Source of the DNA: Spirochaetia bacterium
GTDB taxonomy: Bacteria > Spirochaetota > Spirochaetia > CADAEX01
Reading direction: 5' to 3'
Assembly: GCA_963662795.1 (NCBI GenBank)
Contig: OY759746.1
Location: 448,001 to 512,000 of the forward strand
Length of the DNA: 64,000 nucleotides
Position numbers and translations under genes: made by a program. Under the pieces are notes generated by a model that saw only the letters and a program-made list of their open reading frames with translations, was not told where the DNA came from and did not search any database. This document shows, piece after piece, positions 10,264-49,507 of this stretch (positions are counted from its first letter, which is position 1; every line of letters begins with the position of its first letter).

Positions 10264-10375
10264 GCAGTCGATTGTTTTACAGAGATTTTACGGACACTTT
10301 GCCTTGCGGCAAAGTTTTAAATAAGATAAGTGTTTATAGTATAAGTATTTATTTTTTACATGTTTAAAAAAATAT

Positions 10376-10461: not shown

Positions 10462-10552
10462 ATTTTGCAATCATTATAATACTTTTCATCCACCTGTTGG
10501 TCAAGCATTTGAGCTGGAATTTTGGATCGGCCGGTGTGCCATTTTACATCTG

Positions 10553-31735: not shown

Positions 31736-33102
31736 TTATAATAATTACTTATGTTAAGTTCTTTTATCCTTGTGTACAATGTTTTTCTGCTTATTTTCAA
31801 AAGTTTTGCAGCTTTTTCTTTGTTTCCTTCACTTTTTGTAAGAGCTTCAATAATTATTTTCTTCATAAATTTTTTATCATAGTCATCAAATGCAATATCA
31901 ATGTTTTGTTTTTGATTACTTTCTGTATCAATATAAACTTCTTTTGAATATTCAATAATTCTATCTGGAAGATTTTCCTCAGTTATTTCCCGATTATCAC
32001 ATATAACAACACATCTTTCAATGCAATTCTTAAACTCACGGATATTTCCCTGCCATTGATAATTTTTCAAATAATTCAAAACTTTTCTGTCTATTTTTAA
32101 GATATTTTTATTGTACTTTTTATTAAATAAATGAATAAAAAAATTTGCCAATTCTTCAATATCATCCTTTAATTCATTAAGTGAAGGCATAATTAAATTT
32201 ACCCCGTTTATCCTGTGATAAAGGTCAAGTCTAAATTTATTTTCCTTTATCATTTTAATTAAATCCTTATTGGTTGCTGTAATTATTCTGATGTCAACAG
32301 TAATTAGCTTGCTTGATCCAATAGGTGTAAATTTGAAATCTTCCAAAAATCGCAGCATTTTTGCCTGTAGAGAGTCCGTCATATCCCCAATTTCATCAAG
32401 AAAAAGAGTACCATTTTTAGCTTGTTCAATTTTTCCAATTTTTCTATCATTAGCTCCCGTAAAAGCACCTTTCTCATAACCAAAAAGCTCACTCTCCAAT
32501 AATGATTCGGGGATTGCCGCACAGTTAATACAAATAAATGGTTTATTTGCGCGATTACTTACATCTACAATATGTTTGGCAATAAGCTCTTTGCCTGTAC
32601 CACTTTCCCCCTGAATGAGGACAGGGATATTTGTTTTTGCAAACTTTTCTGCAAGTCTTAGATTTGTTTGATATTTGTTATTTTTAAAAAATGAATAAAT
32701 ATAAGGTTCTTTTAATTTAAAATCTTCATAAAGGGGAAGATTTTGTTTTATTAGAACAAGTAATTCATTAAAATTAAATGGTTTTACCAGATAATCAATT
32801 ACTCCCAGTTTAAATGCATTACGGGCACCATCTAAAGATGCATATGCTGTCATTAGTATAATTGGTATTTTCTTTTTTATCTTTTTTATGAATACAATAC
32901 CTGACATGTTAGGCATTACAATATCAGATAATATAAGATCTATGCTTTTTATTTGGTCTATTATTTCCAAACCTTTATTTGCATCATTAGCAATAAAGAT
33001 ATTAAACCCTTCTGTTTCTAATAGCTTTTTTAATGATAAACACATTCCTGGCTCATCATCAACAACTAGAACATTATAAGTTTTTTTTCCGTTTAAAATC
33101 AT
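31732..33102 (-). CDS. Sigma54-dependent response regulator (NtrC/AtoC type)
   Basis: VVDDE, SDIVMP, GESGTGKE, GAFTGA, FLDEIGD, GNIRE, Fis-type HTH. Confidence 0.95.
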   Translation of the reverse strand: MILNGKKTYNVLVVDDEPGMCLSLKKLLETEGFNIFIANDANKGLEIIDQIKSIDLILSDIVMPNMSGIVFIKKIKKKIPIILMTAYASLDGARNAFKLGVIDYLVKPFNFNELLVLIKQNLPLYEDFKLKEPYIYSFFKNNKYQTNLRLAEKFAKTNIPVLIQGESGTGKELIAKHIVDVSNRANKPFICINCAAIPESLLESELFGYEKGAFTGANDRKIGKIEQAKNGTLFLDEIGDMTDSLQAKMLRFLEDFKFTPIGSSKLITVDIRIITATNKDLIKMIKENKFRLDLYHRINGVNLIMPSLNELKDDIEELANFFIHLFNKKYNKNILKIDRKVLNYLKNYQWQGNIREFKNCIERCVVICDNREITEENLPDRIIEYSKEVYIDTESNQKQNIDIAFDDYDKKFMKKIIIEALTKSEGNKEKAAKLLKISRKTLYTRIKELNISNYYK

Positions 33103-33150
33103 CTTATCAACACTTTACTATAGTATTTCAATAAAAAATACTTATTATTA

Positions 33151-33789
33151 CTAATAAATATTTTCATTTACGCTATTCTCTTTTAGCTTTTTTAAAAAAT
33201 TAGCTGCATAAACTCCATCAATAATCCTATGGTCAGCAGATAAATTTAAGCTAACAATATCATCGTCAGATTTTGAACCTATCCCAATGATTGCCACTTC
33301 AGGATAATTAATTATTGGATTAAATCTTTTAATGCCATAACTTCCTAAATTTGAAATCGTAAAAGTGCCGTTTGACATATCCATCAAGTTTAATTGATGA
33401 CTATTTGCTTTTTTAATAATTTCTACAAATTCATTTGCAATTGCATAAATTGTTTTTTTATTTGCGTTTTTTATATTTGGAACAAATAACCCATATTCTG
33501 TGTTTATTGCAAACCCTATATTTATTTCATTATGGATATTAATCATTTTGTCATCTACTGAAGCATTTAAAAGAGGGAAATCATTTAAAGTTACTGAACA
33601 TAATTTAATCATAAAGGGAAGAAATTGAATATTAATATTGTTATTCATTTTAAAATTATTTTTTAGTCTATATATTTCACTTACATTAAGTTCAATTTCA
33701 TAATCAACTTTAGGAATGATTTGCCAACTCTGACTCATTTTTGTGGCGATCCTCTTTCTTATGCCTTTAATTATTATTGGGGTAGACAT
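33151..33789 (-). CDS. 2-oxoacid/acetoin dehydrogenase E2, catalytic domain only
   Basis: RKRIATKM, GTFTISNLG, PIIN, DHRIIDG; own GGAG RBS. Confidence 0.9.
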   Translation of the reverse strand: MSTPIIIKGIRKRIATKMSQSWQIIPKVDYEIELNVSEIYRLKNNFKMNNNINIQFLPFMIKLCSVTLNDFPLLNASVDDKMINIHNEINIGFAINTEYGLFVPNIKNANKKTIYAIANEFVEIIKKANSHQLNLMDMSNGTFTISNLGSYGIKRFNPIINYPEVAIIGIGSKSDDDIVSLNLSADHRIIDGVYAANFLKKLKENSVNENIY

Positions 33790-33794
33790 GTTTT

Positions 33795-34037
33795 TTACTC
33801 CGAACAGTCAATATAGGCAATAACATCACCAGCTGTCACGTCTTCACCTTCGTTAAATTTAATTTCTGTCAGAACTCCATCAAATGGACATTCAATTTCA
33901 TTTACAGCTTTATCGCTCTCAACTGTTAAGAGTATTTCTCCCTTTTTTACTGCTTGTTGTTCTTTTATTTCCCATGAGACAATATTAACTTCTTCGTTAA
34001 TTTGACCGTACTTTGGCATTTTTATTTCACGCAACAT
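33795..34037 (-). CDS. Stand-alone lipoyl-domain protein
   Basis: IKMPKYG, VESDKAVNEIE (lipoyl Lys). Confidence 0.9.
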   Translation of the reverse strand: MLREIKMPKYGQINEEVNIVSWEIKEQQAVKKGEILLTVESDKAVNEIECPFDGVLTEIKFNEGEDVTAGDVIAYIDCSE

Positions 34038-34047
34038 AATTACCTCC

Positions 34048-35067
34048 TCAAATATTTAACATATCCAATATTTCTTTTTCAATTTTTTCTTCACCAGGAA
34101 TAACATATTTTTCCAAATCTGGAGAACAGGGGATTGGAATATCCATTGTTGTTACTTTTTTCACTGGACTGCACAATATTTTATAATTTTTTTCATAAAT
34201 AATTGATGACAACTCAGAACTCCAACTGCAAAAACCATTATCTTCGTCAACAATCATAAGTTTTTTTGTTTTTTTGACAGAACTGTCAATTAATTCTATA
34301 TCAAGTGGAACTAAAGTCCTGGGATCTATTATTTCAATATCAATTCCTTTTTTCTCATAAAGCCTCTGGCAAATTTTAATAGTTTTTTTAAGTAAAAGTA
34401 AAGTTGCAACTATTGTAAGATCTTTTCCTTTTCTTCTTATAATACCTTTACCAAATGGCGTTATTTCTTCAATTACACCTGATGAATCCTCTTCTTGTTC
34501 AACAGCACCTTTTTCTAATCTTCCTCCACCATATAAAAGCTTATGCTCTAAAAATAGTATAACGCCATTTGATCTAATAGCATTTTTCATTAACCCTTTT
34601 GCATCCTGAGGTGTAGACGGAACTACAACAGTTATTCCTGGAACATGACAAAAAAAAGCTGCTGGAGTTTGTGCATGCTGGGCTCCTCTAGAAGTAGCAC
34701 CTACCGGCGCTCTAATAATCACTGATATAGTATTTTTTCCACCTGACATAAATCTAATCTTTGCGGCCTGATTAACGATTTGATCCATAGCACAAAAAAG
34801 AAAATCCGAATATTGCACCTCGGTTATCGGTTTAAAACCCAACAGTGATACACCAACAGCAGAACCAATTATTGCTGATTCTGATATGGGTGTATCGATA
34901 ATTCTTTCATGCCCATATTTTTCTGACAACCCTTTAGTTACTGTAAAAGGGCCTCCCCAACCTCCAGTTATTCCAATATCTTCGCCAAGACATATTACTT
35001 TTGGATTAATATCCATTTCTTCATCTATAGCTTCATTAATAGCTTTTGCAATTGACAGTTTTTTCAT
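34048..35067 (-). CDS. TPP-dependent dehydrogenase E1 beta (AcoB/PdhB-like)
   Basis: GEDIG, DTPISE, DQIVNQAAK, GAQH, DPRTLVPLD. Confidence 0.93.
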   Translation of the reverse strand: MKKLSIAKAINEAIDEEMDINPKVICLGEDIGITGGWGGPFTVTKGLSEKYGHERIIDTPISESAIIGSAVGVSLLGFKPITEVQYSDFLFCAMDQIVNQAAKIRFMSGGKNTISVIIRAPVGATSRGAQHAQTPAAFFCHVPGITVVVPSTPQDAKGLMKNAIRSNGVILFLEHKLLYGGGRLEKGAVEQEEDSSGVIEEITPFGKGIIRRKGKDLTIVATLLLLKKTIKICQRLYEKKGIDIEIIDPRTLVPLDIELIDSSVKKTKKLMIVDEDNGFCSWSSELSSIIYEKNYKILCSPVKKVTTMDIPIPCSPDLEKYVIPGEEKIEKEILDMLNI

Positions 35068-35084
35068 ATTATTTATACACCTAT

Positions 35085-36029
35085 TTATAAAAATTCAAAT
35101 ATTCTCGTTTTATCAAGCAAATTACTTTCTTCCGCAAACTTAACAGCCTCATTTATCTCTTTTTCAATTTTAATATCAATTTTTTTCATTTTTTCTTCAA
35201 GAAATATGTTATCTCCAATTAATTTTTTCTTGAATATATTAATTGGATCATTTTTCCCCCATTCCTCTTCTTCTGCTTTATCACGATAACTGCATGCATC
35301 ATTTCTAGAATGCCCTCTATGCCGATAAGTTCTATATTCTATAAGAGTTGGTCCGTCACCATCACGTGCCCTGTCAATAGCTTTTTTAGCAATTTCCATT
35401 ACTGTATCAATATCATTACCAAAACCTGTTACACCTGGAATCCCATAACTTATTGCTCTATCTGATATTTTTTCAATATTAGTAGTTTTCTTATAATATG
35501 TAGATGCTGCATATAGATTATTTTCACATATAAACACAACCGGAAGTTTATAAACAGAACAAAAATTTATTCCTTCATGAAAAAAACCTTGATTACTTGC
35601 TCCATCTCCAAAAAAACAAACTGCCACATTTTTATTATTAAGTAATTTTAATCCCAGACCAATACCGGCAGAAATAGGTATATTTGCACCTACGATAGCA
35701 TTTGAAGTAACGATCCCTAAATCAATATTTCCCAAATGCATTGCTCCACCCAAACCTTTACAACAACCATTTTCTTTTCCGTATAATTCAGCCATGATTT
35801 CCCTCATAGTCATTCCTTTGGCAAGGCAATGTCCAACTGGTCTATGAGTACTTAAAATATAATCTTCTTTGGTTAATAAATTACAAACACCTACGGCTAT
35901 TGCTTCTTGTCCCTGGGATTGGTGAACTGTTCCTGGAATTGCATCTTGAAGAAATAAATAATAAACCGCATCTTCAAACATTCTAATTTGTTTCATTTTT
36001 TCATATAAAAATAGTTCTTTTTCCAACAT
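35085..36029 (-). CDS. TPP-dependent dehydrogenase E1 alpha (AcoA/PdhA-like)
   Basis: GQEA, STHR, FGDGA..ENN TPP motif, YRHRGHS. Confidence 0.93.
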   Translation of the reverse strand: MLEKELFLYEKMKQIRMFEDAVYYLFLQDAIPGTVHQSQGQEAIAVGVCNLLTKEDYILSTHRPVGHCLAKGMTMREIMAELYGKENGCCKGLGGAMHLGNIDLGIVTSNAIVGANIPISAGIGLGLKLLNNKNVAVCFFGDGASNQGFFHEGINFCSVYKLPVVFICENNLYAASTYYKKTTNIEKISDRAISYGIPGVTGFGNDIDTVMEIAKKAIDRARDGDGPTLIEYRTYRHRGHSRNDACSYRDKAEEEEWGKNDPINIFKKKLIGDNIFLEEKMKKIDIKIEKEINEAVKFAEESNLLDKTRIFEFL

Positions 36030-36045
36030 ATTTTGATTCCCCAAT

Positions 36046-36085
36046 TGGCAGAGGGTAGTCTTTAATTAACGACTACCCTCTGCCA
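36046..36085. repeat. Perfect 15-bp intergenic stem-loop
   Basis: TGGCAGAGGGTAGTC / GACTACCCTCTGCCA with no U tract. Confidence 0.85.
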
Positions 36086-36093
36086 GTTCAATA

Positions 36094-37458
36094 TCAAACA
36101 TCAATAAAAAGTTTATCCTGTAATTTTCTTAGTTGATGTACTAATGTATCTGTGTTTTTCATTTCAACATCGTTATAAGTAATAGCATTACCCTTCTTTA
36201 TCTCTTTCTTCAATACACACCCTTTAGCTAAACCAAAAGGAAGGAGATTATCATTTCGTGCAATTATAGCTTTCTCTATTCTTCCGGCAGAATAAAAACC
36301 GCCAATCTCATCAATAATATCTCCTGTTTTCAGATCTTTCTTTGCAATTGTTATTGTTTCTGCATATCTTTTTTCCGGTAGTGGGGCAACAGATGCTTGA
36401 TTATAGAGTGCTGCATAAGCAATTGATATAGGAGCTGTATTTCCAACCCAATGAATTGGTTCATACCAGACCCAGTTAGGACCAGGTCCACCGGAACCAT
36501 GGTATTTCAACCCTTCAGTTGCGGCTGTTACTTTTGAAGTTACTACAATAAAGCATAAAATTGTACCCACACCACCAGGAATACCTACCATTTCAACAAC
36601 ACCTTTTTGATTTAGTAAACCACCATCCTTTTTCAATGCAAATTTTGCTGCAGCATTTTTCTGAAAATCCCCATCAAATGCAATTAATGGACTATGTGTA
36701 CCTCTTACATCAGGGACAAGTCCTGTGGCATTTGCCAGCATTGTCAATTCTTCACTGGTTTTTGATCCATCATTAAATGATGCAAACATATATGGATTAA
36801 TTGGCATTGTTTTAGGATCAAATCCTCTTTTTTTTGCTCTTCCTTCAATCAATGTTTTTACAGTATCGGGATTCCAGTTTAAATCTGAGTTACCAGTATC
36901 ACCTCTTCCAGCCGCAACAACTTCAAATCCCAGGGAAGTTGCCTGATCGTATAATAATTTAATAACTCCAGGTTCATCTCCATAAATACCTGTGTAGGTT
37001 ACTCCGGCAGTGTCAGCAAGCATTTTAAGAATATGTCCAACAACGACATCCATTTCTACACTCATAGATACTACATGTTTTTTTCTTCTAATAGATTCAA
37101 AACAAAAATTAGTACCTACTTCAACATTTCCAGTACATTCAACAACCACTTGTATTTCTTTAAGTGCCAAAAGTATTTTGAAATCTTTAGTTACTACTAC
37201 TTTTTTATTTCTGATTGCCTTTTCTGCTTCTTCAAGATTTTTACAAATTGCTATTTTCTCATCACTTACACCTGACAATTGTAATACCTTAACACATTTG
37301 TCTGTATCGATATCGACAACAATTTTTACATCCATTCCAGGAGACATAGTTGTCTGCCCACAAAGATTCATTCCCATTGCACCGGCTCCGACAATGCCAA
37401 CACCTATTGAACACCCATCATTCTCCATTTGTTGAAGTTTAGTATTAAGACCAAACAT
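36094..37458 (-). CDS. NAD(P)-dependent homoserine-dehydrogenase-like oxidoreductase with C-terminal SAF domain (COG4091-like)
   Basis: GAGAMG, ECTG, GDEPG, FNDGSK, ANATG, AKKDLKTG..IGG, LPFGLA. Confidence 0.85.
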   Translation of the reverse strand: MFGLNTKLQQMENDGCSIGVGIVGAGAMGMNLCGQTTMSPGMDVKIVVDIDTDKCVKVLQLSGVSDEKIAICKNLEEAEKAIRNKKVVVTKDFKILLALKEIQVVVECTGNVEVGTNFCFESIRRKKHVVSMSVEMDVVVGHILKMLADTAGVTYTGIYGDEPGVIKLLYDQATSLGFEVVAAGRGDTGNSDLNWNPDTVKTLIEGRAKKRGFDPKTMPINPYMFASFNDGSKTSEELTMLANATGLVPDVRGTHSPLIAFDGDFQKNAAAKFALKKDGGLLNQKGVVEMVGIPGGVGTILCFIVVTSKVTAATEGLKYHGSGGPGPNWVWYEPIHWVGNTAPISIAYAALYNQASVAPLPEKRYAETITIAKKDLKTGDIIDEIGGFYSAGRIEKAIIARNDNLLPFGLAKGCVLKKEIKKGNAITYNDVEMKNTDTLVHQLRKLQDKLFIDV

Positions 37459-37466
37459 TTTTCCTC

Positions 37467-38231
37467 CTAATTAATCGATTTATATATTTCATTATACATT
37501 ATTGTATAATCTTCAATGTTGAGACCACTTCTACCAACAAATACACCTGATACATTATTTGTATTTATTATTTTTCTTATATTTTCAACTGAAACACTTC
37601 CGCCATAGAGAATGATAAATTTTTCATCATTCTTTCCATATATTTTATTGATATAGTTTTTTATAAAAGTATGCATATACTCTATGTATTTTTGATCTGC
37701 ACTATCCTTAGTTCCTATTGCCCATACCGGTTCATATGCAAAAATTATTTTTTTTGCATCATTGATTGTTATTCCGTATAGTGCTTCTTTCAATTGAAGT
37801 TGCAATATTTCTTCACTCAAGCCTTTTTCCTTTTCATCCTGATTCTCACCTATGCAAAAAATTGGTATTTTGCCATATCTAATTATTGCTTTTAGTTTTT
37901 TATTAATTACACTATTTGTCTCGGCGAAATATTTCTTTCTTTCTGCATGGCCCACCTCAATATATTCAACTCCTATTTTCACCAACTCTTTAATTGAAAC
38001 TTCTCCTGTGAAAGCACCATTATCTTCATACCATCCATTTTGGGCTCCTACCTTAACACCTGATTCATTTAAGATTAAAAGGACATCTTTGATAGCAGTA
38101 AGAGATGGCAAAACAAATAGTTCTACTTTATCATTTTTCAATTTAAGATTTTTAATTTTTAAAGCAAGATCTTTCGCCTCATTATCGCTCAAATACATTT
38201 TCCATCCACACCCAAATATTTTTTTCTCCAT
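37467..38231 (-). CDS. Triose-phosphate isomerase-family protein, non-housekeeping (LerI/EryH-like)
   Basis: GCGWKM instead of AGNWKM, EVGHAER, YEPVWAIG, YGGSV, FVGRS instead of LVGGAS. Confidence 0.85.
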   Translation of the reverse strand: MEKKIFGCGWKMYLSDNEAKDLALKIKNLKLKNDKVELFVLPSLTAIKDVLLILNESGVKVGAQNGWYEDNGAFTGEVSIKELVKIGVEYIEVGHAERKKYFAETNSVINKKLKAIIRYGKIPIFCIGENQDEKEKGLSEEILQLQLKEALYGITINDAKKIIFAYEPVWAIGTKDSADQKYIEYMHTFIKNYINKIYGKNDEKFIILYGGSVSVENIRKIINTNNVSGVFVGRSGLNIEDYTIMYNEIYKSIN

Positions 38232-38256
38232 TTAACACCCTCCAATGTTTTTATTT

Positions 38257-39051
38257 TTAATGGAATTCTCTTCCACCTGTTATATTTACTGATTGACCTG
38301 TCATAAAACTGGTTTTATCAGAACATAAAAATACAGCCATATTTGAAATATCATCACATTTACCTTTCCGTTTTAATGGTGTATTTTCTATTGTGAGCTT
38401 TTTTTTCTCTTCAATTGAAATATTTAATAATTTTGCCATATTCTCTGTTACTTTATCATTCATCCCAGTATCAATACTTCCCGGACAAATTGAATTTATA
38501 TTTATCCCATATTCCCCCAATTCACGGGCAAGACTTTGAGTAATATTTATAACAGCACTTTTAGATGCACTATATACTGTTTCGAATAAGAACCCTGTTT
38601 TTCCTGCTTGAGAAGCAATATTCACAATTTTTCCATATCGATTTTTTTTCATGTTGTTAATCACGGCCTGACAACAGAAAAAAACACTTTTTACATTTAT
38701 ATTGAATATTTTATCCCATATTTCTTCTGTTATATCTTCAACCCGACTAACATCAACAATACCAGCTGAATTTATTAGTATATCAATTCGTTTAAATTGT
38801 TCACAAATATTCTTAACTTCTTCGTCTACTCTATTTTTATCTGTAATATCAATTTTTATTGCCTGAAGATATTTTCCATTTTTTTGATTTTCCTCTATAT
38901 TTTTAATCGTATTATCGATATTAATATCAAAAATAAAAACTTTTGCTCCTTCCTTCACGAGTTCTCTGGAAATTGATAAACCAATACCAGCCCCTCCACC
39001 AGTGACAACTGCAATTTTATCTTTTAAAAACAGTTCCATATCAACCTTCAA
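38257..39051 (-). CDS. SDR oxidoreductase (polyol dehydrogenase-like)
   Basis: TGGGAGIG, NSAG, ASQAGK, YSASK, NITGG. Confidence 0.92.
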   Translation of the reverse strand: MKVDMELFLKDKIAVVTGGGAGIGLSISRELVKEGAKVFIFDINIDNTIKNIEENQKNGKYLQAIKIDITDKNRVDEEVKNICEQFKRIDILINSAGIVDVSRVEDITEEIWDKIFNINVKSVFFCCQAVINNMKKNRYGKIVNIASQAGKTGFLFETVYSASKSAVINITQSLARELGEYGININSICPGSIDTGMNDKVTENMAKLLNISIEEKKKLTIENTPLKRKGKCDDISNMAVFLCSDKTSFMTGQSVNITGGREFH

Positions 39052-40027
39052 TATTTTCTTTTTTCTTTAACAAACTATCTATTGCAACTGCAAATATAAT
39101 TAGAATACCAACTACAATTCTCTGAAAAAATGGGTTTACTCCAACAATATTTAGTCCATTTAATATTACGCCGTAAATCAAAATACCAAACCCAGTTTTA
39201 ACCATTGATCCTCGGCCACCAGATAGACTTGTCCCACCTATTACAACTGCAGCAATAGCATCCATTTCCAACCCTGAACCAGCAGATGATTCAGCAGCAT
39301 TCATACGCATCAGAAGAATAATTCCGCCAATCGATGTCATCATTCCTGATAACATATAAACGAATACGGTATTTCTTCTCACTGAAATGCCACTGATTTT
39401 TGCAGCCAGCGAGTTGCCGCCAATTGCATATATTGAACGACCCAATGTTGTATAACGCATTATCAGAATAAAAATAATAAAAATAATTATCACAATAAAT
39501 ATTATTGCTGGAACTCTTATCCATGTATTAGTTGCAAGATATCTGAAATTTTCTGGCAAAGGATAAATTGTAGAACCCAATGTATAAGTCAATTGAAGGC
39601 CTTTTGCAATTCCCATCATACCTAATGTTGCAACTAAAGGCGGTATTTTAAGAAAAACTACATTAACTCCATTAATACCTCCTAAAGCAATTCCTATAAG
39701 AATTGCAACTGAACAAGCTACTAAAATACTATTACCGCTTTTTAACATCCCAGCACAAATTGCAGATGTAACAGCTAACACAGACCCTACTGACAAATCA
39801 ATTCCACCAGTTAAAATTACTAACGTTTCTGCTATTGCCACAGGAGTTAATATTGATATTTGTAAAAAAATATTATAAATATTTCTTTCAGATAAAAATC
39901 TTGGCTCTGCAGTAAAAAATAATATAATCAAAATAAACAAAGCTAATATGAGTGGACTTTTATTTATCAATTTTAAAACTGTATTATTTTTCAACCTATA
40001 GGTATTTTTCATATAATCCTCCCCCAT
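39041..40027 (-). CDS. Sugar ABC transporter permease (RbsC-like)
   Basis: GGIDLSVGS, GRSIYAIGGN, AVVIGGTSLSGG. Confidence 0.95.
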   Translation of the reverse strand: MGEDYMKNTYRLKNNTVLKLINKSPLILALFILIILFFTAEPRFLSERNIYNIFLQISILTPVAIAETLVILTGGIDLSVGSVLAVTSAICAGMLKSGNSILVACSVAILIGIALGGINGVNVVFLKIPPLVATLGMMGIAKGLQLTYTLGSTIYPLPENFRYLATNTWIRVPAIIFIVIIIFIIFILIMRYTTLGRSIYAIGGNSLAAKISGISVRRNTVFVYMLSGMMTSIGGIILLMRMNAAESSAGSGLEMDAIAAVVIGGTSLSGGRGSMVKTGFGILIYGVILNGLNIVGVNPFFQRIVVGILIIFAVAIDSLLKKKENIEG

Positions 40028-40047
40028 TGCTGTCTGTATAAGTATTT

Positions 40048-41574
40048 CTATGCAGTAAGTATAGATAATAACTTTTGTTCATCTCTTACCTCACCATTTT
40101 TATATTCTCCAATTATTTTTCCTTTTTTCAGGACAATGAACCTGTCAGGTACTTCAAGTATTTCAGCAAGCTCTGATGAAACAAATATTATCGATTTTCC
40201 TTTTTCTGCTTCGGATTTTAGTAAATTATAGATCTCAAATTTCGCTCCCACATCTATTCCTCTTGTTGGTTCGTCCAAAATTAATATTTCCGAATCAGCA
40301 AGCAACCACTTTCCAAGTACAATTTTTTGCTGATTCCCACCACTTAAATTTGCAATTAGTATTTTAGCATTAGCTGGTTTTACACTTAATTCATTAACAA
40401 TTTTATTTGCAAATATTTTTTCCTTTTTTAAATTGATAAACCCTTTATAGTTTTGAAATATTTTCAAACTGCTTAACGTTATATTTTTTGCTACGCTGAG
40501 AAATGGGATAATGCCTTCAAGTTTCCTATCTTCTGTTATAAATCCGATTCCATTTTTAATACTGTATTTGATACTTCTGGATTTTCTTTCTTTACCGTGA
40601 ATAAAAACGCTGCCTCCATTTGATTTATTAATACCATATATGATTTTTAATATTTCAGTTTTACCACTACCGAGTAGACCGGTTATTCCCAGTATTTCTC
40701 CTTTCTTCAATTTAAAACTTACATCATCAACCTTTTTTTCGTATTTGATGTTTTTTACTTCTAAAATAATTTCATTTGGTCCATTATATATCCTTGATGC
40801 ACCACGGCGTATATTTTTTGTACCCAACATTTTATGTATCAATAAATCTTTATCAATTTCAGTTGTTTTAAATATTCCCTCACTTCTTCCGTCTTTTAAA
40901 ACCAATATATTATCACTTACTGCTATAACTTCATCTAAAAAATGAGAAACAAAAATTATTGCGACATCTTTTTTCTTCAATTTCTTTATATGCGTAAAAA
41001 GGAATTTTTTTTCATTTTCTGACATACTAGAAGTTGGTTCATCAAGAAGTAATACTTTTGAGTTCAATATTAATGCTTTAATTATTTCAATAATTTGTTT
41101 ATTAGCAGGTGTTAGTTCTGAAACGCAAGTGCAGGGACCAACATCCTCTAAATTAATATCAAGATATTCAATATATTTTTTCACTAAATTGTTTATGCTT
41201 TTCCAGTTAATAAATGGCGATTGATTATTCCAAGCTCCAAGAACAATATTTTCTGCAACAGTTAGATTTGGACACAATGCACTTTCCTGAGATACATAAG
41301 CTATTTTATATAATTCACGTGCTTGATGAGGTGAACTGATCTCAATATTTTTTCCATTAATTAATATATTACCTCCATCGTTATTATAGACACCAGTTAA
41401 TATTTTTATTAATGTTGATTTACCTGCACCATTCTCACCGACAATACCCAATATTTCACCACTGTTAAGTTTAATTGAAACCTGATCAAGTGCTTTAACA
41501 CTCAAAAAATTTTTACTAATATTTTGCATTTCAAGGTAATTTTTAGTTTCTGTATTTTCCTGGTTAGTGTTCAT
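40048..41574 (-). CDS. Sugar ABC transporter ATP-binding protein (RbsA-like)
   Basis: GENGAGKS, LDEPT, LSGGNQQK, DEPTRGIDVGAK. Confidence 0.95.
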   Translation of the reverse strand: MNTNQENTETKNYLEMQNISKNFLSVKALDQVSIKLNSGEILGIVGENGAGKSTLIKILTGVYNNDGGNILINGKNIEISSPHQARELYKIAYVSQESALCPNLTVAENIVLGAWNNQSPFINWKSINNLVKKYIEYLDINLEDVGPCTCVSELTPANKQIIEIIKALILNSKVLLLDEPTSSMSENEKKFLFTHIKKLKKKDVAIIFVSHFLDEVIAVSDNILVLKDGRSEGIFKTTEIDKDLLIHKMLGTKNIRRGASRIYNGPNEIILEVKNIKYEKKVDDVSFKLKKGEILGITGLLGSGKTEILKIIYGINKSNGGSVFIHGKERKSRSIKYSIKNGIGFITEDRKLEGIIPFLSVAKNITLSSLKIFQNYKGFINLKKEKIFANKIVNELSVKPANAKILIANLSGGNQQKIVLGKWLLADSEILILDEPTRGIDVGAKFEIYNLLKSEAEKGKSIIFVSSELAEILEVPDRFIVLKKGKIIGEYKNGEVRDEQKLLSILTA

Positions 41575-41600
41575 AAAAAATTCCTTATAATATTTTTATT

Positions 41601-41643
41601 AAATATTGTGATGCAGTGAATCATCCACTGCATCACAATATTT
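41601..41643. repeat. Perfect 18-bp stem-loop after the binding-protein gene
   Basis: AAATATTGTGATGCAGTG / CACTGCATCACAATATTT. Confidence 0.85.
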
Positions 41644-41644
41644 C

Positions 41645-42706
41645 TTAACTACGAAGTAGTTTTCTTAATTCTTCAGGAATTTCTGTACCACCTATTGGTA
41701 AATCTCCCCACAAAGCCGTATAATTTTTTATGTTAGCAGGTGTAAGTGTTTCTGTATCAAAAAATAAATTGGGAGGTAATTCAGCGGTTCCATATTTAAT
41801 GGCATGATATGCCAGAAGTACTGCAACTCTTCCCTGCGTATCAGGATACTGAGATACGCATACATCCATATTTCCTTTTCTTACAACATCAAGGGCAAAC
41901 TGAGTTCCGTCAACACCACCTGTTATAATGTGTTTAGGATTACCTTGCGGATATACTTTGCTAAGCTGTTCCATTGCTGCAAATACACCGGACGCCATGC
42001 AATCAGCTTCCATAAATATACAATCGATTTCAGGATGAGCAGTAAGATGTGCCAATGTTGCTTCCATGGCTGGCTGAGGCTCCCAATCACATGCACTTTG
42101 AGCAATTAAATTAATTTTGAATTCAGGATTCATATTCATAACTTCCCAGAATCCTTTATCTCTATCTCTTGAAGGAGAAGAACCTAATTGTCCCCTTATT
42201 TGAATCATATTTATTTGCTTTTTTCCTGTTGCTTTAAATTGATTAATAAATTCACGTGCAATTTTTCTTCCGGCTTCGACGTTATCCGACTGTATAACAG
42301 TTGCAACATTTCCTCCGGTAATACTTCTATCGATGGCAATTACGGGAATATTTGCTTTTTTGCAATTCTCAACTGCGACAGACAATGCATCAGAATCCAT
42401 CGGTATTATAATTATTGCATCTGCTTTTTTTGCTATTGCATCATTTATCATATCTATCTGTCTTGTGAGCACATTATTTGCATCCATAACAGATCCTTCA
42501 AATCCCAGTCTTCCAAGTTCTTGTGCAAAACCATATGCTGCAGCTACAAAAAAAGGCGAAACAAAAGAATAGTGTGATAGAACTATATTTACCTTTTCCA
42601 ATTCACCACTATTTTTTGTCACTTCATCTTTTTTAGAACACCCTGCGAAAAGAATTGTCAGCATTAAAAAAACAACCAACAATTTCCAGATTTTTTTTTG
42701 TCCCAT
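41645..42706 (-). CDS. Sugar ABC substrate-binding lipoprotein (RbsB-like)
   Basis: Lipobox FAGC, IPVIAIDR, SDNVEAG, GVDG. Confidence 0.92.
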   Translation of the reverse strand: MGQKKIWKLLVVFLMLTILFAGCSKKDEVTKNSGELEKVNIVLSHYSFVSPFFVAAAYGFAQELGRLGFEGSVMDANNVLTRQIDMINDAIAKKADAIIIIPMDSDALSVAVENCKKANIPVIAIDRSITGGNVATVIQSDNVEAGRKIAREFINQFKATGKKQINMIQIRGQLGSSPSRDRDKGFWEVMNMNPEFKINLIAQSACDWEPQPAMEATLAHLTAHPEIDCIFMEADCMASGVFAAMEQLSKVYPQGNPKHIITGGVDGTQFALDVVRKGNMDVCVSQYPDTQGRVAVLLAYHAIKYGTAELPPNLFFDTETLTPANIKNYTALWGDLPIGGTEIPEELRKLLRS

Positions 42707-42738
42707 AATAATCCTCCATTTTATATTCTCTAAAATTT

Positions 42739-44256
42739 TTAAAAAATTTTTAGACCATTTAAAAAATGTTTATTTTCAAGATTCTTTCGCCAAACTTTAT
42801 AATATTCTTCATAAATTTGACTTTTTTCAGGCTCGGGGTTGATTTTACATCTAGTTTTATTCAATTCTTTTGCTTTGCTATCAATGCTTTCGTAATAACC
42901 CAATGCATATCCTGCGATGATAGCTGATCCGAGCAATGAACATTCTTGCTGACTTAGCAATAAACATGGCAATCCTAGTACATTAGCTTTTATCTGGTTC
43001 CAGATAATACTTGCAGAACCTCCTCCTATAATTCTCATTTCAGTAGGTTTAGCTATTAAAAGATTTTTCATTTCCTCTAAATAGCCTTTATATTCATATG
43101 CAATTCCTTCAAGAATTGATTTGTAAAAATGCTCCGGTGAATGTGAAAAATCTATTCCGATCCAGGCACCTCTATAATCGGGATTAGGTTGTGTACCTCC
43201 AATATAAGGATAAAAGCCTAATCCAGAGCACCCACTCGGTATATCTTTACAGCTCTCTGATAATTTATCATAAATATTTTCTTCAACATTTGAATTAAAA
43301 AAATTATCCCTAAACCACCTGATCCCTCCGCCACCAGTAGTAAATCCAAAAGTATACCATATATTTTTTACAGGCGATTTTAGAACTCTTAAAACTCCTG
43401 AAGGATCTGGTTTCCAGCTATCTTTAGCAACAAAAACAATTGAAGCAGTACCAGCAATATCTCCCAACTGATTGTCATTCAATATTCCAGCGCCTACTCC
43501 GGCACACGGGAAATCTCCTCCCCCAGAAATTACAGGGATGCCTTCAGTTAATTCCAATAACATTGCATAATAAGAACATAATTTTCCAATAATTTTTTCT
43601 GGTTCCGTAATTTCTGGAAGTTTTTCTATATCAATACCGGTACTTTCACAAATTTCTCTATCCCATTGACATTTTTCAATGTCAGCAATACCACTAAAAC
43701 CTAATGTTGTATTTTCATAATACGCATCTTTACCATTTAAATTCGCAAATTTACCGCCAATATATGTTGCAATAAGAACCATTTTATACGCTTTCTTATA
43801 TATTTCTGGTCTTTCATTTTTCCACCAAAGTATTTTAGGGCCATGAACAATACCAACATTTGTACCAGTTTTATTTAGTATAATGTCACCGCATTCTTTG
43901 ATCATCTCTGGAACATATTTTCCACATCTCATATCTATCCAAGAATCATATTCACTAACAGCATTATAATCTTGGTCTATCCACATTAACCCTGATTGTT
44001 GTCCATCAAAAATAATTCCTTCTACATTTTTTTTATTTATGTTTGATTTATAAAGACATTCTCTTATAGTTGTTACTACAGAAGCCATTAATTCATCTAC
44101 CAATTGAATAGTTGCTCCTGCTTCAGGGTGATAAAGCTTTGTTTCCTTAAATGAAGTACAAACAATTTCTCCGCCAAGATCAAACAACATTGTTTTTGTT
44201 CCTGAGCCTCCAATATCTGAACAAATAACATATTTTTTTTTAATATTTTCTCTCAT
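42739..44256 (-). CDS. FGGY-family carbohydrate kinase (xylulokinase-like)
   Basis: DIGGSGTK, DGQQSG, WIDMR, GGGD, GTAS, ILEGIA, IGGGS. Confidence 0.92.
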   Translation of the reverse strand: MRENIKKKYVICSDIGGSGTKTMLFDLGGEIVCTSFKETKLYHPEAGATIQLVDELMASVVTTIRECLYKSNINKKNVEGIIFDGQQSGLMWIDQDYNAVSEYDSWIDMRCGKYVPEMIKECGDIILNKTGTNVGIVHGPKILWWKNERPEIYKKAYKMVLIATYIGGKFANLNGKDAYYENTTLGFSGIADIEKCQWDREICESTGIDIEKLPEITEPEKIIGKLCSYYAMLLELTEGIPVISGGGDFPCAGVGAGILNDNQLGDIAGTASIVFVAKDSWKPDPSGVLRVLKSPVKNIWYTFGFTTGGGGIRWFRDNFFNSNVEENIYDKLSESCKDIPSGCSGLGFYPYIGGTQPNPDYRGAWIGIDFSHSPEHFYKSILEGIAYEYKGYLEEMKNLLIAKPTEMRIIGGGSASIIWNQIKANVLGLPCLLLSQQECSLLGSAIIAGYALGYYESIDSKAKELNKTRCKINPEPEKSQIYEEYYKVWRKNLENKHFLNGLKIF

Positions 44257-44268
44257 GATTCTTCTATA

Positions 44269-44284
44269 AGCAAAATATATGCCA
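44269..44284 (-). promoter_or_regulatory. Sigma54 -24/-12 promoter
   Basis: TGGCATATATTTTGCT with exact GG-N10-GC spacing upstream of the first operon gene. Confidence 0.85.
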
Positions 44285-44292
44285 AACATCAC

Positions 44293-44346
44293 ATAAGTAC
44301 TTATAAAACAACTCTAGATATAAGTACTTATTTTATAAGTACTTAT
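44293..44346. promoter_or_regulatory. Three perfect 12-bp palindromes ATAAGTACTTAT
   Basis: At 44293-44304, 44320-44331 and 44335-44346. Confidence 0.7.
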
Positions 44347-44584: not shown

Positions 44585-46819
44585 GTAAAGGAAATGGTGA
44601 TTTTTTGTAACTATTCAGCTATTCCAGTACTGCAGGCAAAATAATATTTCCAGTAAAAACACTTTTCAGTGCTTTAAGTACAGATTGGCCAGATTTTTTA
44701 ATACCTGATATATAGTTCTTGTTATACAGAAAGATTTAGCTCCTTACTAAGAGCGAAAAGTACCTGATCTCTTCTGCTGTACTTTAATCATTCTGATATC
44801 CCGTTCAGCCTGATTATTGTCAAATGGGACTTTTGGATCATAAATAAATCTAACTACATCAAGTTTGTATTTCTTTAATCTATATAACAGGTTATAGGCT
44901 TTTGTTTGTTTTACTCGACCTCGTTTACCATGCTTTTTTAGATTTTCGGGATTTTGTTTGAATCCTTCCCTGACAATCCTCTCATACCGACGTTTGTAAT
45001 ATAAAGTACGATGAGCACTTAATTCACCTTGCCTAACTATTTCTTCTTTTGAGTCACATAGACAGGATATCATTTTTTGTGCCCAATTTTGACTTTATTC
45101 TTCTGCAAGATAAGTAAGTTCTCTTAGATGATGGGCATTACAAAGAGCAGGAGTGCAATTATCTTCATAATAAGATCTCTAGTGATCATGAACTGCAGTG
45201 CCGCGAAAACATGGAAGGATTCCCATATCACAGATTGCTGCATTTCCCCGTTTTATATGAGGGAAATAATAAGTTAGCTGCTTATCTGAAGCTAGATGAA
45301 GCCAATGCAGTTTCCCAAGTATTCTATGTTCGGATTCGTCAAAATAGAGAACATCAGATTCAAGAAGCCTGTTTTTTATTTTATTTACAACAGGTTTAAG
45401 CTTTGAAGCACAGTTGTTATTGAAATTAACCAAAGTTCCCGTACTTGTCGATGTTCCAGGAATCCCTTCAAGAGTTTCTTGTAATCTTTCATAACTCAAA
45501 AATCCATGTTGTTTTAAAAATATGGCCAAAGATTTTAACTGATTTCCATACTGAGCATTTTGATTAATTCCTTCAGGAAATTCAGCATGATGTATTCTTC
45601 CACACCGTGGATACTTTTTGAACCCAAAATGATGTTCGGTTACCTTTATTTTAATTTCAGGAATATCAAAGACCTGACGTGAATCATATCCACAAGGCTT
45701 TTCACTGGATAAATCATGACCACAATCACAATGTCCTTCTACATTAGAGAAGGAACCTCTGAATAATTCAAGTTTTTAAGCACCTTTTCTATAATTAATT
45801 CTGTTCAGATAATCCTATGAAGGAAAACGGGTCAAAAATCCTGAATTACTCCCCTAAGGGATTCATGTTTTTCATACCCATCCCGGGTATTTTTCTTAAT
45901 TATTTCCGTTATGCACATGAGAGACCCTGTCTTTTCGCCAAAACAATATTTATCAGTGCACATGAAACAAATACATGATTTGCATTTTTATCAAGACCAC
46001 GATCCTGACCTTTTGATATCCAAACTGTCTTTTAAGTACATGAAAGACATGTTCTACCTTTGCCCTGATTCGTGATTTGTTTCTGTTCTGCTCTTTCTCT
46101 TTCTCAGTAAGTACTTTATTCCTGCTTCCCTTTTTCTGTATAAAGCTTTTTGCACAAGGTGATACTTTTGATATTTTTTCCTTTTGTCCACAGTAGGCAG
46201 AATCTCCTCAGACTCTTGTTTCTTCTCCATGAAGAAGATCTTCCAGTACCTGCGAATCATGCACACTTGCGGCTGTTACAACCACTGAATGTATCAGTTT
46301 TGTCCTGCTGTCCACTCCTATGTGGGTTTTCATTCCAAAATGCCACTGATTCCCTTTTTTCGTCTGCTTCATTTCAGGGTCTCTTTCTTTTTTTATATTC
46401 TTTGTTGAACTAGCCGCTTCTATTATTGTGGCATCTACTATAGTTCCTTTATAGATCTTTATTCCGTTTTCATGCAGATATTCATTCACTTTGGCAAAAA
46501 GTTCAGATCCAGGGTTTCTTGATTCAAGCAGATGCCGGAACTTCAGTATTATTGTTTCATCAGGGACTGGTTCTTCTCCAAGGTCTATTCCGGCAAAATA
46601 CCTGAAAACTTTTGAATCATATAATGCTTCTTCTGCTCCAGGGTCTGATAACTGAAACCAGTGCTGCAGAAAATGTATTCTAAGCATTTTTTCTATACCA
46701 ATAGGTCTTCTTCCTGCTCCTTCCGGTTTCGGATAATATGGCTCGATTACTTCGGACAGTTCTTTCCACGGTATTATTTGTCAACACCGGTTTAAAATTG
46801 CTGTTTCCGGCAAAACATA

Positions 46820-47584
46820 TTAGAAGTCAACGCCTCCTATTTTCAACCGGTCTTTCATCCGGTATGAATCACCTGCAAGACTCAGAACATGAGAATGGTG
46901 GAGAAGCCTGTCGAGGGTAGCGGTAGCCACGGCATCATCGCTCATAATTTCTCCCCAATGTCCAAAATTTTTATTTGATGTTAGAATAATCGAACCATTT
47001 TCATAGCGAGTATTAACAAACTGGAAAAATAAAGTAGCTTGTTCAGGAGTAAGATTTTCATATCCAACTTCGTCAACTAAAAGCACATGTGGTTTTGAAA
47101 ACCATTGCAGTTTCCTTCTAAACTTTCCTTGTTCTCTGGATTTTAATAATCGCTCAAGCAAATCTACACAGGAAATGTAATAAGCGGTAAAACCGTTCAT
47201 GCATGCCTTATATCCTAAAGCCAGAAGAAGATGGGTTTTGCCAAGACCACTTGGGCCGAGAAGAATAATATTCTCTTTTCGCTCAATGAAAGCAAGAGAA
47301 GATAGTTCATTAAACTTTTTCTGGGTTAGCCCACCTTTCAGCCAGCTCAGATCGAAGTCTTCCAGATTCTTATGCTGAGGGATTCCTGAAACCTTCAACC
47401 GTGTTCTGGCCATTCGTTCTTTACGGGGGTGATATTCAAGATCAACTAAATCAGATAAAACTTCCAGAAGCGTATTCTCACGCCTGGATTGGTCGCTAAG
47501 AAATGATTCAAAACCAGCTGACATAAATGAAAGATTGAGCTCTTCCATGCGTGCTTTTACAAGCCCCATTGATATTGTACTCAT
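46820..47584 (-). CDS. istB: IS21 helper ATPase IstB
   Basis: GPSGLGKTHL, LVDEVGY, TSNK, LDRLLHH. Confidence 0.95.
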   Translation of the reverse strand: MSTISMGLVKARMEELNLSFMSAGFESFLSDQSRRENTLLEVLSDLVDLEYHPRKERMARTRLKVSGIPQHKNLEDFDLSWLKGGLTQKKFNELSSLAFIERKENIILLGPSGLGKTHLLLALGYKACMNGFTAYYISCVDLLERLLKSREQGKFRRKLQWFSKPHVLLVDEVGYENLTPEQATLFFQFVNTRYENGSIILTSNKNFGHWGEIMSDDAVATATLDRLLHHSHVLSLAGDSYRMKDRLKIGGVDF

Positions 47585-48819: not shown

Positions 48820-49507
48820 TTTAGGGCGATTCCTTTTGTTTAGATTTGTGCTTAAACCTATTGAAAGGATATCTGCCCTTTTTTTCAAGCCGGTACCTGC
48901 AACTTTATTCCGGTGTTTTACTGCAGTTTAGCACCGGTGCTGACAATTATTTTATCCATCTGTTTAAGAAACAGTTCCTTCTTTGTTGTTTTTCTGTATT
49001 TTTCAAAGCCCTCTGTTGTTAAAGATACCTGACGCATTTTCTCACTCCTATAGCTGGCTTTGATTCTATCATTTTTTCAATAATTAATCAGAGGTTCCAG
49101 AAACTATTTCATCGGGGCTTTCTATCTTTTTGAGAGTTGTTCCTCCATGACCATGTTTCCCTCCGGCTTTGCCACCTTTTTTTCTTAAAGATTTTGTTTT
49201 CTTTTTCTTGTATGGATTGTCAGTAGAAGGAGATTTACTAAAGTTGTGGCTGTCTTTATTTATTATTGCTTCAAGTTTTTTTATTCTCTTTTCCTGTTCT
49301 TCAACTTTATCAGAAAGTTGATTAATTACATCCTGCAAGCTAAATACCAATTGTACTACTGCCTCGGGGCCTTGGTCATATACATTGAAAATTTGTTCAC
49401 GTGATAAATTTAAAAGCTTTTTTTCTGCTCTCCCATATTGGGAATATTTTAATATTTCGAATTCTTAATTAATACTTAACAAATGCTTTTTTTCGCTGAA
49501 TAGTTAC

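Follow-up and report, generated by a model that had tools for sequence, protein, structure and literature searches.

The window analysed here is a stretch of 64,000 nucleotides from the genome of a Spirochaetia bacterium (contig OY759746.1). Our subject is a run of eleven minus-strand genes within it, at positions 33151-44256, in which genes for sugar import and phosphorylation are followed by those of a dehydrogenase complex. A preliminary description, made from the letters alone, had proposed a sugar or polyol pathway ending in cleavage by a complex dependent on thiamine pyrophosphate (TPP) and lipoate. We assigned domains to the open reading frames (ORFs) of the window with Pfam and took curated cut-offs from NCBIfam. 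All eleven genes were found as intact ORFs, given here in the order of transcription:

42739-44256, minus strand: FGGY-family sugar kinase (FGGY_N 131 bits, FGGY_C 86 bits)
41645-42706, minus strand: solute-binding protein (SBP), lipoprotein-type, of a CUT2 (ribose-type) ATP-binding cassette (ABC) importer (Peripla_BP_4, 171.5 bits)
40048-41574, minus strand: ABC importer ATPase with two fused nucleotide-binding domains (double ABC_tran)
39041-40027, minus strand: ABC importer permease (BPD_transp_2, 130.9 bits)
38257-39051, minus strand: short-chain dehydrogenase (SDR) of polyol/acetoin-reductase type (adh_short)
37467-38231, minus strand: triosephosphate-isomerase (TIM) paralogue (TIM, 241 bits)
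36094-37458, minus strand: DRL/DXR-II-family NAD(P) oxidoreductase, first described as a SAF-domain oxidoreductase (DRL_cat and NAD_binding_3)
35085-36044, minus strand: E1 alpha subunit, TPP-binding, of acetoin/pyruvate-dehydrogenase type (E1_dh, 293 bits)
34048-35067, minus strand: E1 beta subunit (Transket_pyr 132 bits, Transketolase_C 94 bits)
33795-34037, minus strand: free-standing lipoyl carrier protein of 80 amino acids (Biotin_lipoyl, 71.5 bits)
33151-33789, minus strand: E2 acyltransferase core alone, 212 amino acids (2-oxoacid_dh, 210.8 bits, profile positions 7-222 of 232)

The spacing between these genes ranges from an 11-nt overlap up to 70 nt, and a single sigma-54 promoter, as read from the sequence, heads all of them. 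When two regulatory genes (below) are counted with the structural ones, thirteen of thirteen ORFs are intact. The description of the block as one operon for an unassigned pathway agrees with the curated models: ten of the eleven structural proteins score below every NCBIfam cut-off, and the sole protein above one, the SDR, passes only a broad subfamily model. The accompanying remark that no aldolase or transketolase gene is present is right for this operon and fails beyond it, as a class II aldolase-family gene takes the position of the TIM paralogue in the related cluster of a Saccharofermentanales metagenome-assembled genome (G041). We regard the operon as part of a catabolic system that is real, conserved and so far without a description, with known kinds of enzyme system assembled into what may be a new pathway.

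The oxidoreductase is central to this reading. In a sequence search of the PDB it aligned over its full length with Brucella abortus DRL (3upl/3upy; E = 7.4e-54, residues 3-450 against 9-435), and the DRL_cat model (PF21135; COG4091) matched with 115 bits against a cut-off of 27. In the available part of the principal study of this family, the hallmark residues of DXR-II include Gly121, Thr229 and His250, while Lys191, Lys193 and Thr229 anchor fosmidomycin and Arg320 lies at the dimer interface (PMC3847144). The window DRL keeps Gly121, Thr229 and His250, and other DXR-II-specific positions are changed (Lys191 to Arg, Lys193 to Asp, Arg320 to Glu, Val351 to Tyr), leaving only Thr229 of the anchor set.

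We aligned 162 family members and built a tree; no experimentally verified DXR-II sequence is among them. The same part of the family study counts eleven experimentally verified members in the DXR-II clade, and places two uncharacterised sister groups in the family (PMC3847144). By motif, our sequences fall into a GKGKNN...R class (n = 86), a GRG(D/E) class (n = 19), a GR-x-D/E-type class (n = 53) and four sequences with none of these patterns. The eighty-six GKGKNN...R sequences, which are Brucella-type, make up one clade (support 0.80). The window DRL, with the signature GRGDTGN, belongs to a separate clade of nineteen (support 0.998; class II hereafter), all nineteen of which have Arg at position 191 and Asp or Glu at position 193. 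By sequence and tree placement it is a member of the DXR-II/DRL family that lies outside the DXR-II-signature clade. A database of 5.8 billion proteins holds fifteen members of its clade at 58-76 per cent identity, with the next best matches at or below 48 per cent. A search of genome contigs with the single DRL sequence found no relative, and a search with the alignment of the fifteen clade members found ten loci, two of them of the window's clade. Kinship with ApnO (apionate oxidoisomerase) was considered and dropped: the ApnO paper makes no mention of DXR, SAF, DRL or Pfam, and the only true matches in the PDB were 3upl/3upy. The preliminary description had left the cleavage product as acetyl- or glycolyl-CoA; the homology with DXR-II points to a 1-deoxy-ketose phosphate, an acyloin like 1-deoxy-xylulose 5-phosphate (DXP), and to acetyl-CoA rather than glycolyl-CoA.

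The second element is the cleavage complex. A TPP-binding alpha subunit and a transketolase-like beta subunit make it a heterodimeric E1, the only one in the host genome, and motifs associated with activity can be read in all parts (GDG...NN in E1, ESDKA in the lipoyl protein, DHRIIDG in E2). The E2 is not a single chain: it is split exactly at a domain border into the lipoyl protein and the core. No E3_binding match, which would mark a peripheral-subunit-binding domain, was found in the Pfam scan of the window proteins, and the operon has no E3 gene. By analogy with the H protein of the glycine cleavage system, such a split E2 would work with a free lipoyl carrier. The genome has a single Lpd, in its pyruvate dehydrogenase (PDH) locus (506 bits against a cut-off of 408.8), and this enzyme would reoxidise the lipoyl protein in trans.

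We next compared gene neighbourhoods. The earlier reading depended on the combination of genes being conserved, and it does recur in G041, in a different order (DeoR-E1a-E1b-class II aldolase-family-fused E2-E3-FGGY kinase-SBP-ATPase-permease-SDR-DRL), so it is not a chance juxtaposition. Identities between G041 and the window are 53 per cent for the kinase, 59 per cent for the SBP, 51 per cent for the ATPase, 61 per cent for the permease, 54 per cent for the SDR and 65 per cent for DRL. For the complex they are 55-57 per cent for E1 alpha, 48.5 per cent for E1 beta, 45 per cent for the lipoyl part and 34 per cent for the E2 core. Since no E1 alpha in the 5.8-billion-protein database exceeds 58 per cent identity to that of the window, the G041 subunit is among the closest known, which suggests that E1 travelled with the core of the operon.

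A metagenome contig (L039) carries kinase-SBP-ATPase-permease-SDR-RpiB-TIM-DRL at 51-65 per cent identity to the window. It ends 146 nt upstream of the kinase, and E1/E2 genes may lie beyond its edge. After this operon, L039 also holds a gene for an LXG-domain protein of the polymorphic-toxin type (9947-11437), unrelated to the finding. In L040, a copy in decay, the kinase, SDR and RpiB genes persist as remnants, and DRL is followed by a class II aldolase-family gene; another locus, L023, reads permease-zinc alcohol dehydrogenase-SDR-DRL. The SDR gene is kept beside DRL in four of the five class II loci (the window, G041, L039 and L023) and is present as a remnant in L040. In the third motif class, locus L044 has the order E1a-E1b-E2-CMD-DRL. 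The cluster has no E3 gene, and between E2 and DRL lies a CMD/AhpD-family gene (6737-7090), whose product might stand in for E3, since dihydrolipoyl groups can pass electrons to AhpD-type proteins. Ten DRL loci of the host's relatives lack E1/E2, and their DRLs belong to other classes.

We also sampled DRL neighbourhoods in 399 genomes of the class Clostridia. One of them (G041) has an orthologue of the window DRL and twenty-seven others have more distant family members; twenty-nine DRL places besides G041 were compared, and counts from them are lower bounds, as several contigs are short. In eleven of the twenty-nine (L063-L067, L070-L073, L080 and L088) the DRL gene lies directly behind the genes of a glucitol-type phosphotransferase system (PTS; regulator, GutM, EIIC, EIIBC, EIIA), where it occupies the place of sorbitol-6-phosphate dehydrogenase. 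That enzyme holds the position behind the PTS genes in classical gut operons. Pfam confirmed the PTS genes in seven of eight loci scanned. All PTS-linked DRLs have the Lys-Gly-Lys (GKGKNN) signature, and their loci continue either with E1E2E3 or with a HAD phosphatase and a glycerol-1-phosphate-dehydrogenase-like gene. Six of the twenty-nine places, all in the PTS group, have E1a-E1b-E2-E3 next to DRL, five directly and one (L064) with a SorC-type regulator gene between; at a seventh locus, E1E2E3 lies about 5 kb from a kinase-DRL pair. No SDR was found in the six PTS-DRL-E1E2E3 operons by tblastn with the window SDR, and Pfam scans of four of them (L064, L065, L070 and L073), which covered the ORFs near DRL other than the DRL and E1/E2/E3 genes themselves, agree. 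In L065, an ispD gene lies just upstream of the PTS-operon regulator.

The proposed tie between E1/E2 and the sugar genes is thus borne out by the adjacency of the oxidoreductase and E1ab/E2 in the window, G041, L044 and six of the twenty-nine Clostridia places. The linkage of DRL with E1/E2 takes at least five architectures (the window, G041, L044, the PTS-DRL-E1 order and the variant of L064). We consider it probable that the complex cleaves a ketose or ketose phosphate made by the DRL branch.

The FGGY kinase comes closest to XylB (TIGR01312; 231.9 against a cut-off of 380) among curated models and to a gluconate kinase (1.7e-38) among solved structures, and shares 53-56 per cent identity with the kinases of G041 and L039. 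The importer ATPase matches xylose-, arabinose- and ribose-type NCBIfam models, each below its cut-off, the permease is RbsC-like (237 against 398), and the best solved relative of the binding protein is 2ioy (2.4e-40). Solved relatives of the binding protein, the kinase and the SDR give no usable hint of the substrate. Elsewhere in the host genome, at about 2642178-2647515, a second FGGY kinase gene lies beside a class II aldolase-family gene and a homologue of the operon's sigma-54 activator.

The genome already holds AceE (1370 bits), AceF and Lpd at 1.598-1.603 Mb, a DXR-I (405.6 bits) and a DXS (722.9 bits), and the operon is therefore needed neither for pyruvate oxidation nor for isoprenoid synthesis. 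A housekeeping tpiA and two rpiB genes lie outside the operon, as do four split transketolase-like gene pairs and one transketolase-like ORF of 660 amino acids.

On these grounds we tentatively read the operon as one for the catabolism of a small polyol, most likely a branched or deoxy one, for which the best candidate is 2-C-methyl-D-erythritol (ME) or its ketose, 1-deoxy-D-xylulose, by oxidative cleavage of DXP; this is a favoured reading that we hold at somewhat below even confidence. The ABC importer would take up the free polyol. DRL would run the DXR reaction in reverse on the unphosphorylated compound, turning ME into 1-deoxy-xylulose, and the xylulokinase-like FGGY kinase would convert this to DXP. 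E1 alpha/beta would then cut DXP, a methyl-ketone acyloin, between C2 and C3, giving glyceraldehyde 3-phosphate (GAP) and an acetyl group on the free lipoyl protein, from which the E2 core would transfer it to CoA. The net conversion, polyol to acetyl-CoA and triose phosphate, would amount to DXP synthase run in reverse and oxidatively. Neither the SDR nor the altered TIM paralogue would have a place in this route; the two may serve a second, unbranched, tetritol-like substrate. One could speculate that the operon has two branches, with unbranched tetritols passing through SDR, kinase, TIM paralogue and RpiB, and a methyl-branched tetritol through DRL, kinase, E1 and E2. All the individual reactions are inferred, as are the nature of the substrate, the sequence in which DRL and kinase act, and the recruitment of Lpd in trans.

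Several lines of evidence fit this route. [quoted passage not shown] From ordinary hexitol or pentitol phosphates the products would be fructose 6-phosphate or xylulose 5-phosphate, for which no such enzyme is needed. Salmonella imports ME and phosphorylates it to MEP, according to the available part of one source, where the title of the work cited names the sorbitol PTS (PMC3994034). In another, also seen in part, single substitutions in the E1 of E. coli PDH let cells make DXP (PMC3424233), so E1 active sites can apparently handle DXP chemistry. The available part of the DXR-II study further reports two Firmicutes that have DXR-II and neither another MEP-pathway gene nor a mevalonate-pathway gene (PMC3847144), which fits a non-biosynthetic role.

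The order of steps is suggested by the DRL residues. Lys191 and Lys193 are kept in the PTS-linked DRLs and replaced by Arg and Asp in the clade linked to an ABC importer and kinase, a pattern that fits a phosphorylated substrate in the first group and a free one in the second; the change from Lys-Gly-Lys to Arg-x-Asp would mark the switch between them. As a general rule, PTS routes for polyols phosphorylate first, and ABC routes oxidise first. The order of DRL followed by kinase matches this rule for ABC routes, as well as the loss of the lysines that anchor phosphate. E. coli xylulokinase accepts deoxyxylulose. In the full-text literature searched, in which subscription journals are thinly covered, we found no description of ME or deoxyxylulose catabolism or of a DRL-E1/E2 operon. 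Somewhat more tentatively still, we suggest that the operon is the ABC-importer/kinase version of an undescribed pathway for ME or deoxyxylulose, in which the DXR reaction runs backwards and E1/E2 reverses DXP synthase oxidatively, to acetyl-CoA and GAP.

A number of observations weigh against the ME route. It leaves the conserved SDR without a role, and conversion of GAP to dihydroxyacetone phosphate is a weak account of what the TIM paralogue may do. In L039 RpiB adjoins the TIM paralogue, the pairing that a tetritol route needs. The window DRL lacks Lys193 (Asp) and Arg320 (Glu) of the Brucella enzyme, and DXR chemistry in its clade is putative. Among residues common to nine DRL-linked E1 alpha subunits and rare in 119 other homologues, there is no basic candidate for phosphate binding; the comparison yielded three positions (Asn115, Ser181 and Asp192), none of them basic, and as the contexts of the 119 homologues are unknown it is weak either way. 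An E2 without a detected subunit-binding domain, in surroundings of insertion sequences (IS), leaves room for partial loss of function. Class II loci seen with E1/E2 number two (the window and G041), with L039 limited by its contig edge and L040 decayed. Other DRL loci carry class II aldolase, transaldolase/FSA, zinc alcohol dehydrogenase, or HAD and glycerol-1-phosphate-dehydrogenase-like genes in place of E1/E2, and further neighbours at the Clostridia loci include RpiB and TIM. Such varied neighbours imply more than one substrate or route for the family. When the aldolase-like, RpiB, HAD and iron alcohol dehydrogenase neighbours of other DRL genes were subtyped with NCBIfam, nothing specific emerged.

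The alternative that survives best, though we think it unlikely, is the one first put forward for this DNA. Here an unbranched or hydroxymethyl-branched polyol or sugar (erythritol or threitol, a pentitol, or D-apiose by way of apiitol) would be oxidised by the SDR, DRL or both and phosphorylated, and E1/E2 would cleave the hydroxymethyl-ketose phosphate (xylulose 5-phosphate, erythrulose 4-phosphate or apulose 4-phosphate) to glycolyl-CoA and an aldose or triose phosphate. A role as LerI/DerI-type isomerases would fall to the TIM paralogue and, elsewhere, to RpiB. This reading puts both dehydrogenases to use, and L039 unites SDR, kinase, TIM paralogue and RpiB, the gene set with which Huang and colleagues are said to have described a tetritol route in 2015. 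The TIM paralogue is 36 per cent identical to the host's own tpiA. It keeps the Lys, His and Glu of the enzyme, with the catalytic Asn changed to Gly, loop 6 from GTG to GTK and loop 8 from GGAS to GRSG; its orthologue in L039 (51 per cent identity) has the same Asn-to-Gly and loop-8 changes and GKD in loop 6. These conserved non-TIM substitutions indicate that it is not a simple extra TIM. The solved L-erythrulose-1-phosphate isomerase matches it at 2.2e-42, but true TIMs match it better (2.4e-54). The suggested analogy with tetritol catabolism draws only on the SDR and on a TIM paralogue whose LerI/EryH character is putative.

The order kinase-SBP-ATPase-permease-SDR also equals that of the D-apiose cluster of E. 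coli SE15, where, in the available part of the source, two SDRs presumably take over from apiose isomerase, with the TPP-dependent cleavage left to a split transketolase (PMC13001218). Xylulose 5-phosphate, however, needs no special cleavage in a host with the transketolase-like genes listed above. Cleavage of erythrulose 4-phosphate would give glycolaldehyde phosphate, and glycolyl-CoA would have no obvious sink here. Nor would a glycolyl-CoA route account for the choice of a DXR-II relative, of all enzymes, as the partner of E1/E2 in many arrangements.

Quite improbable, in our view, is that the operon joins two unrelated modules, with the SDR and E1/E2 as a 2,3-butanediol/acetoin set in which E1 acts on acetoin, and with importer, kinase, TIM paralogue and DRL as a separate sugar-alcohol set. 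The SDR does score 214.8 bits on the acetoin reductase model and 192 on that for meso-butanediol dehydrogenase, E1 alpha is of the short type of about 320 amino acids that sources label pyruvate/acetoin dehydrogenase, and the lipoyl protein matches best, among NCBIfam models, the lipoyl portion of acetoin dehydrogenase E2. All of these scores, however, lie under the curated cut-offs (304 for acetoin reductase). On L-iditol 2-dehydrogenase the SDR is also short of the cut-off (238 against 338), and its best solved relative is the sorbitol dehydrogenase 1k2w (4.5e-47). The TIM and DRL genes separate the SDR from E1 in the window, and in G041 SDR and E1 stand towards opposite ends of the cluster. 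DRL adjoins E1E2E3 in the six PTS operons without a detected SDR gene, and one predicted sigma-54 promoter heads all eleven genes here.

Very improbable, too, is a 2-oxo-acid dehydrogenase dedicated to the pathway, with a sugar branch that ends in pyruvate or a 2-oxo sugar acid and a classical oxidative decarboxylation. The nearest curated models and solved structures for E1 are indeed PDH subunits, but the scores stay under the PDH equivalog cut-offs (328 against 393.85 for alpha, 295 against 321 for beta). The complete AceE-type PDH of the host argues against a plain role in pyruvate oxidation, and in the Pfam assignments the operon has no dehydratase, lactonase or aldolase to make a 2-oxo acid.

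Set beside known systems, the operon shares parts with each. It is like Brucella DXR-II/DRL in the full-length fold family, the DRL_cat domain and Gly121, Thr229 and His250, and differs in Arg191, Asp193 and Glu320, in its separate clade, in its catabolic sigma-54 operon in a host that already has DXR-I, and in a proposed direction that is oxidative and a proposed substrate that is unphosphorylated. Acetoin dehydrogenase cleaves an acyloin to acyl-lipoate and an aldehyde. With this enzyme (AcoA/AcoB/AcoC/AcoL) and with heterodimeric-E1 PDH the operon has in common E1 alpha and beta with a TPP motif, a lipoyl domain and a 2-oxoacid_dh core, and the same chemistry would be expected. Unlike them, it has its lipoyl domain as a separate 80-residue protein, no detected subunit-binding domain and no E3 gene; its scores lie below the PDH cut-offs, its genes sit within an operon for sugar uptake and phosphorylation, and its proposed substrate is a phosphorylated five-carbon acyloin.

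The PTS-DRL-E1E2E3 operons of Clostridia resemble the window operon in linking DRL to E1/E2 and in what would be the same plan of import, one DRL step and lipoate-dependent cleavage. They differ in having a PTS where the window has an ABC importer and FGGY kinase, a DRL that keeps Lys-Gly-Lys, no SDR and no TIM paralogue, a fused E2 in five of six and an E3 gene in six of six; their DRLs are 38-40 per cent identical to that of the window (five of the six, with L080 left out). The tetritol routes of Mycobacterium smegmatis and Brucella use a polyol dehydrogenase, a kinase, a TIM-family isomerase (LerI/EryH) and an RpiB-family isomerase (DerI/EryI). In the window a polyol dehydrogenase of SDR type stands with a kinase and a TIM paralogue, to which L039 adds RpiB; in contrast to those routes, the window operon has no RpiB in the Pfam assignments, and its DRL and E1/E2 have no counterpart there. 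The D-apiose transketolase route (E. coli SE15 ECSF_RS02670-02715; Pectobacterium) shares the order FGGY kinase-SBP-ATPase-permease-SDR and TPP-dependent carbon-carbon cleavage of a ketose phosphate. It has a split transketolase where the window has an E1 with lipoate, and its second oxidoreductase is an SDR rather than a DRL. Orthology with this cluster was rejected, as protein identities are 21-36 per cent, the kinase is 21 per cent identical to AplK, and E1a and E1b match AptA and AptB weakly (23 and 21 per cent). Judged from sequence, the system would function as a polyol operon with a kind of acetoin dehydrogenase attached, and is not a full member of the DXR-II clade, of the PDH or Aco equivalogs, or of the tetritol or D-apiose clusters.

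The remaining features of the locus concern its control and its setting:

44293-44346, minus strand: three exact copies of the 12-bp palindrome ATAAGTACTTAT, starting at 44293, 44320 and 44335
44269-44284, minus strand: sigma-54 -24/-12 promoter element, TGGCAT-N5-TTGCT (exact pattern match)
31732-33102, minus strand: sigma-54-dependent response regulator with receiver, AAA+ and Fis-type helix-turn-helix domains (Sigma54_activat, 223.9 bits)
29933-31735, minus strand: histidine kinase with an N-terminal degenerate ABC ATPase domain followed by PAS and kinase domains (ABC_tran 47 bits, HATPase_c 68.7 bits)
44747-45529, minus strand: IS66-family transposase in two fragments, upstream edge of the island (Pfam/NCBIfam)
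28299-29117, minus strand: IS3-family transposase, downstream edge of the island (Pfam/NCBIfam)

The promoter element is the single exact match in the 64 kb. With one mismatch allowed, six matches were found against 4.9 expected, which is near chance, so the case for the element rests on its position and not on its count: its -12 end lies about 12 nt before the kinase ATG at 44256. That ATG is the likelier start than a GTG at 44292 because the N-terminal extension of the longer ORF would overlap the element. The mRNA predicted from this promoter (44256-44284) would have almost no leader and no clear ribosome-binding site. With one mismatch allowed, ATAAGTACTTAT occurs six times in the window against 0.35 expected, and none of 100 shuffles reached six; the palindromes are likely binding sites (upstream activating sequences) of the sigma-54 activator. 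The genome has rpoN (Sigma54_DBD, 187 bits) and at least eight homologues of the activator. Control by sigma-54 is thus predicted from a -24/-12 element, an AAA+ activator and rpoN together. Scans for intrinsic terminators and for sigma-70 promoters gave matches at chance level only.

The histidine kinase begins with about 250 residues of a degenerate ABC ATPase, with GKRDSGTS as its Walker A sequence and Asn-Tyr in place of the Walker B Asp-Glu; an LSGGQ motif was not seen. Nor was a membrane segment noted in the kinase, where no search aimed at one was made. This domain is 26 per cent identical to each half of the operon ATPase (40048-41574), and the kinase may sense the transporter rather than the solute. 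If so, it may exemplify a sensor that follows the state of a transporter.

G+C content is 39.7 per cent in the genome, 32.0 per cent in the eleven operon genes and 24.6 per cent in the two regulators, GC3 is 0.17-0.25 in all thirteen genes, and only 0.2 per cent of the genome's 1.5-kb windows reach the AT-richness of the kinase gene. Beyond the IS66 fragments, IS5 and IS21 elements extend up to 48888, and sixteen of the twenty-eight ORFs of at least 110 amino acids in 81-28117 have transposase or integrase domains. Types seen in 81-28117 and 44747-48888 are IS3, IS110, IS5/IS1182, IS66 with a TnpB-like Orf2, Mutator-family fragments and IS21. Identical Pfam scores for the ORFs at 3763-4839 and 26568-27644 make it probable that one element is present twice; at 11692-12081 there is a TctA transporter fragment. 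No DRL homologue was found in either of the two other genomes of the host's genus. As it is AT-rich relative to the genome, flanked by IS elements and carries a DRL without a homologue in the two congeneric genomes, we conclude that the block 29933-44346, a catabolic island under predicted sigma-54 control, was acquired horizontally.

Least probable of all is that this import is decaying or only partly functional, its split E2 unable to assemble a working complex for want of a detected subunit-binding domain: the IS-dense flanks, the visibly decayed L040, the near absence of a leader between promoter and start codon, and an E2 that is fused in G041 and L044 and split here would suit such a state, but all thirteen ORFs are intact and the E2 is split at the domain border with both catalytic motifs retained.

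The window operon extends the PTS-linked set by a form built on an ABC importer and kinase; its DRL comes from a clade apart, its TIM is altered and its E2 split, and it further brings an SDR and predicted control by sigma-54. If the ME reading is right, the known range of thiamine/lipoate E1-E2 systems, 2-oxo acids and acetoin, would widen to a sugar-like acyloin that bears a phosphate, and a five-carbon compound would enter as acetyl-CoA and triose phosphate. Central metabolism would then be fed, for the first time, by a lipoate-dependent cleavage of a sugar phosphate. Methylerythritol is made by plants and released by bacteria, and it would gain a defined microbial sink. The patchy distribution of DXR-II, including the Firmicutes without an isoprenoid pathway that appear in the available part of the family study (PMC3847144), would then be explained by polyol catabolism as the home of the enzyme.

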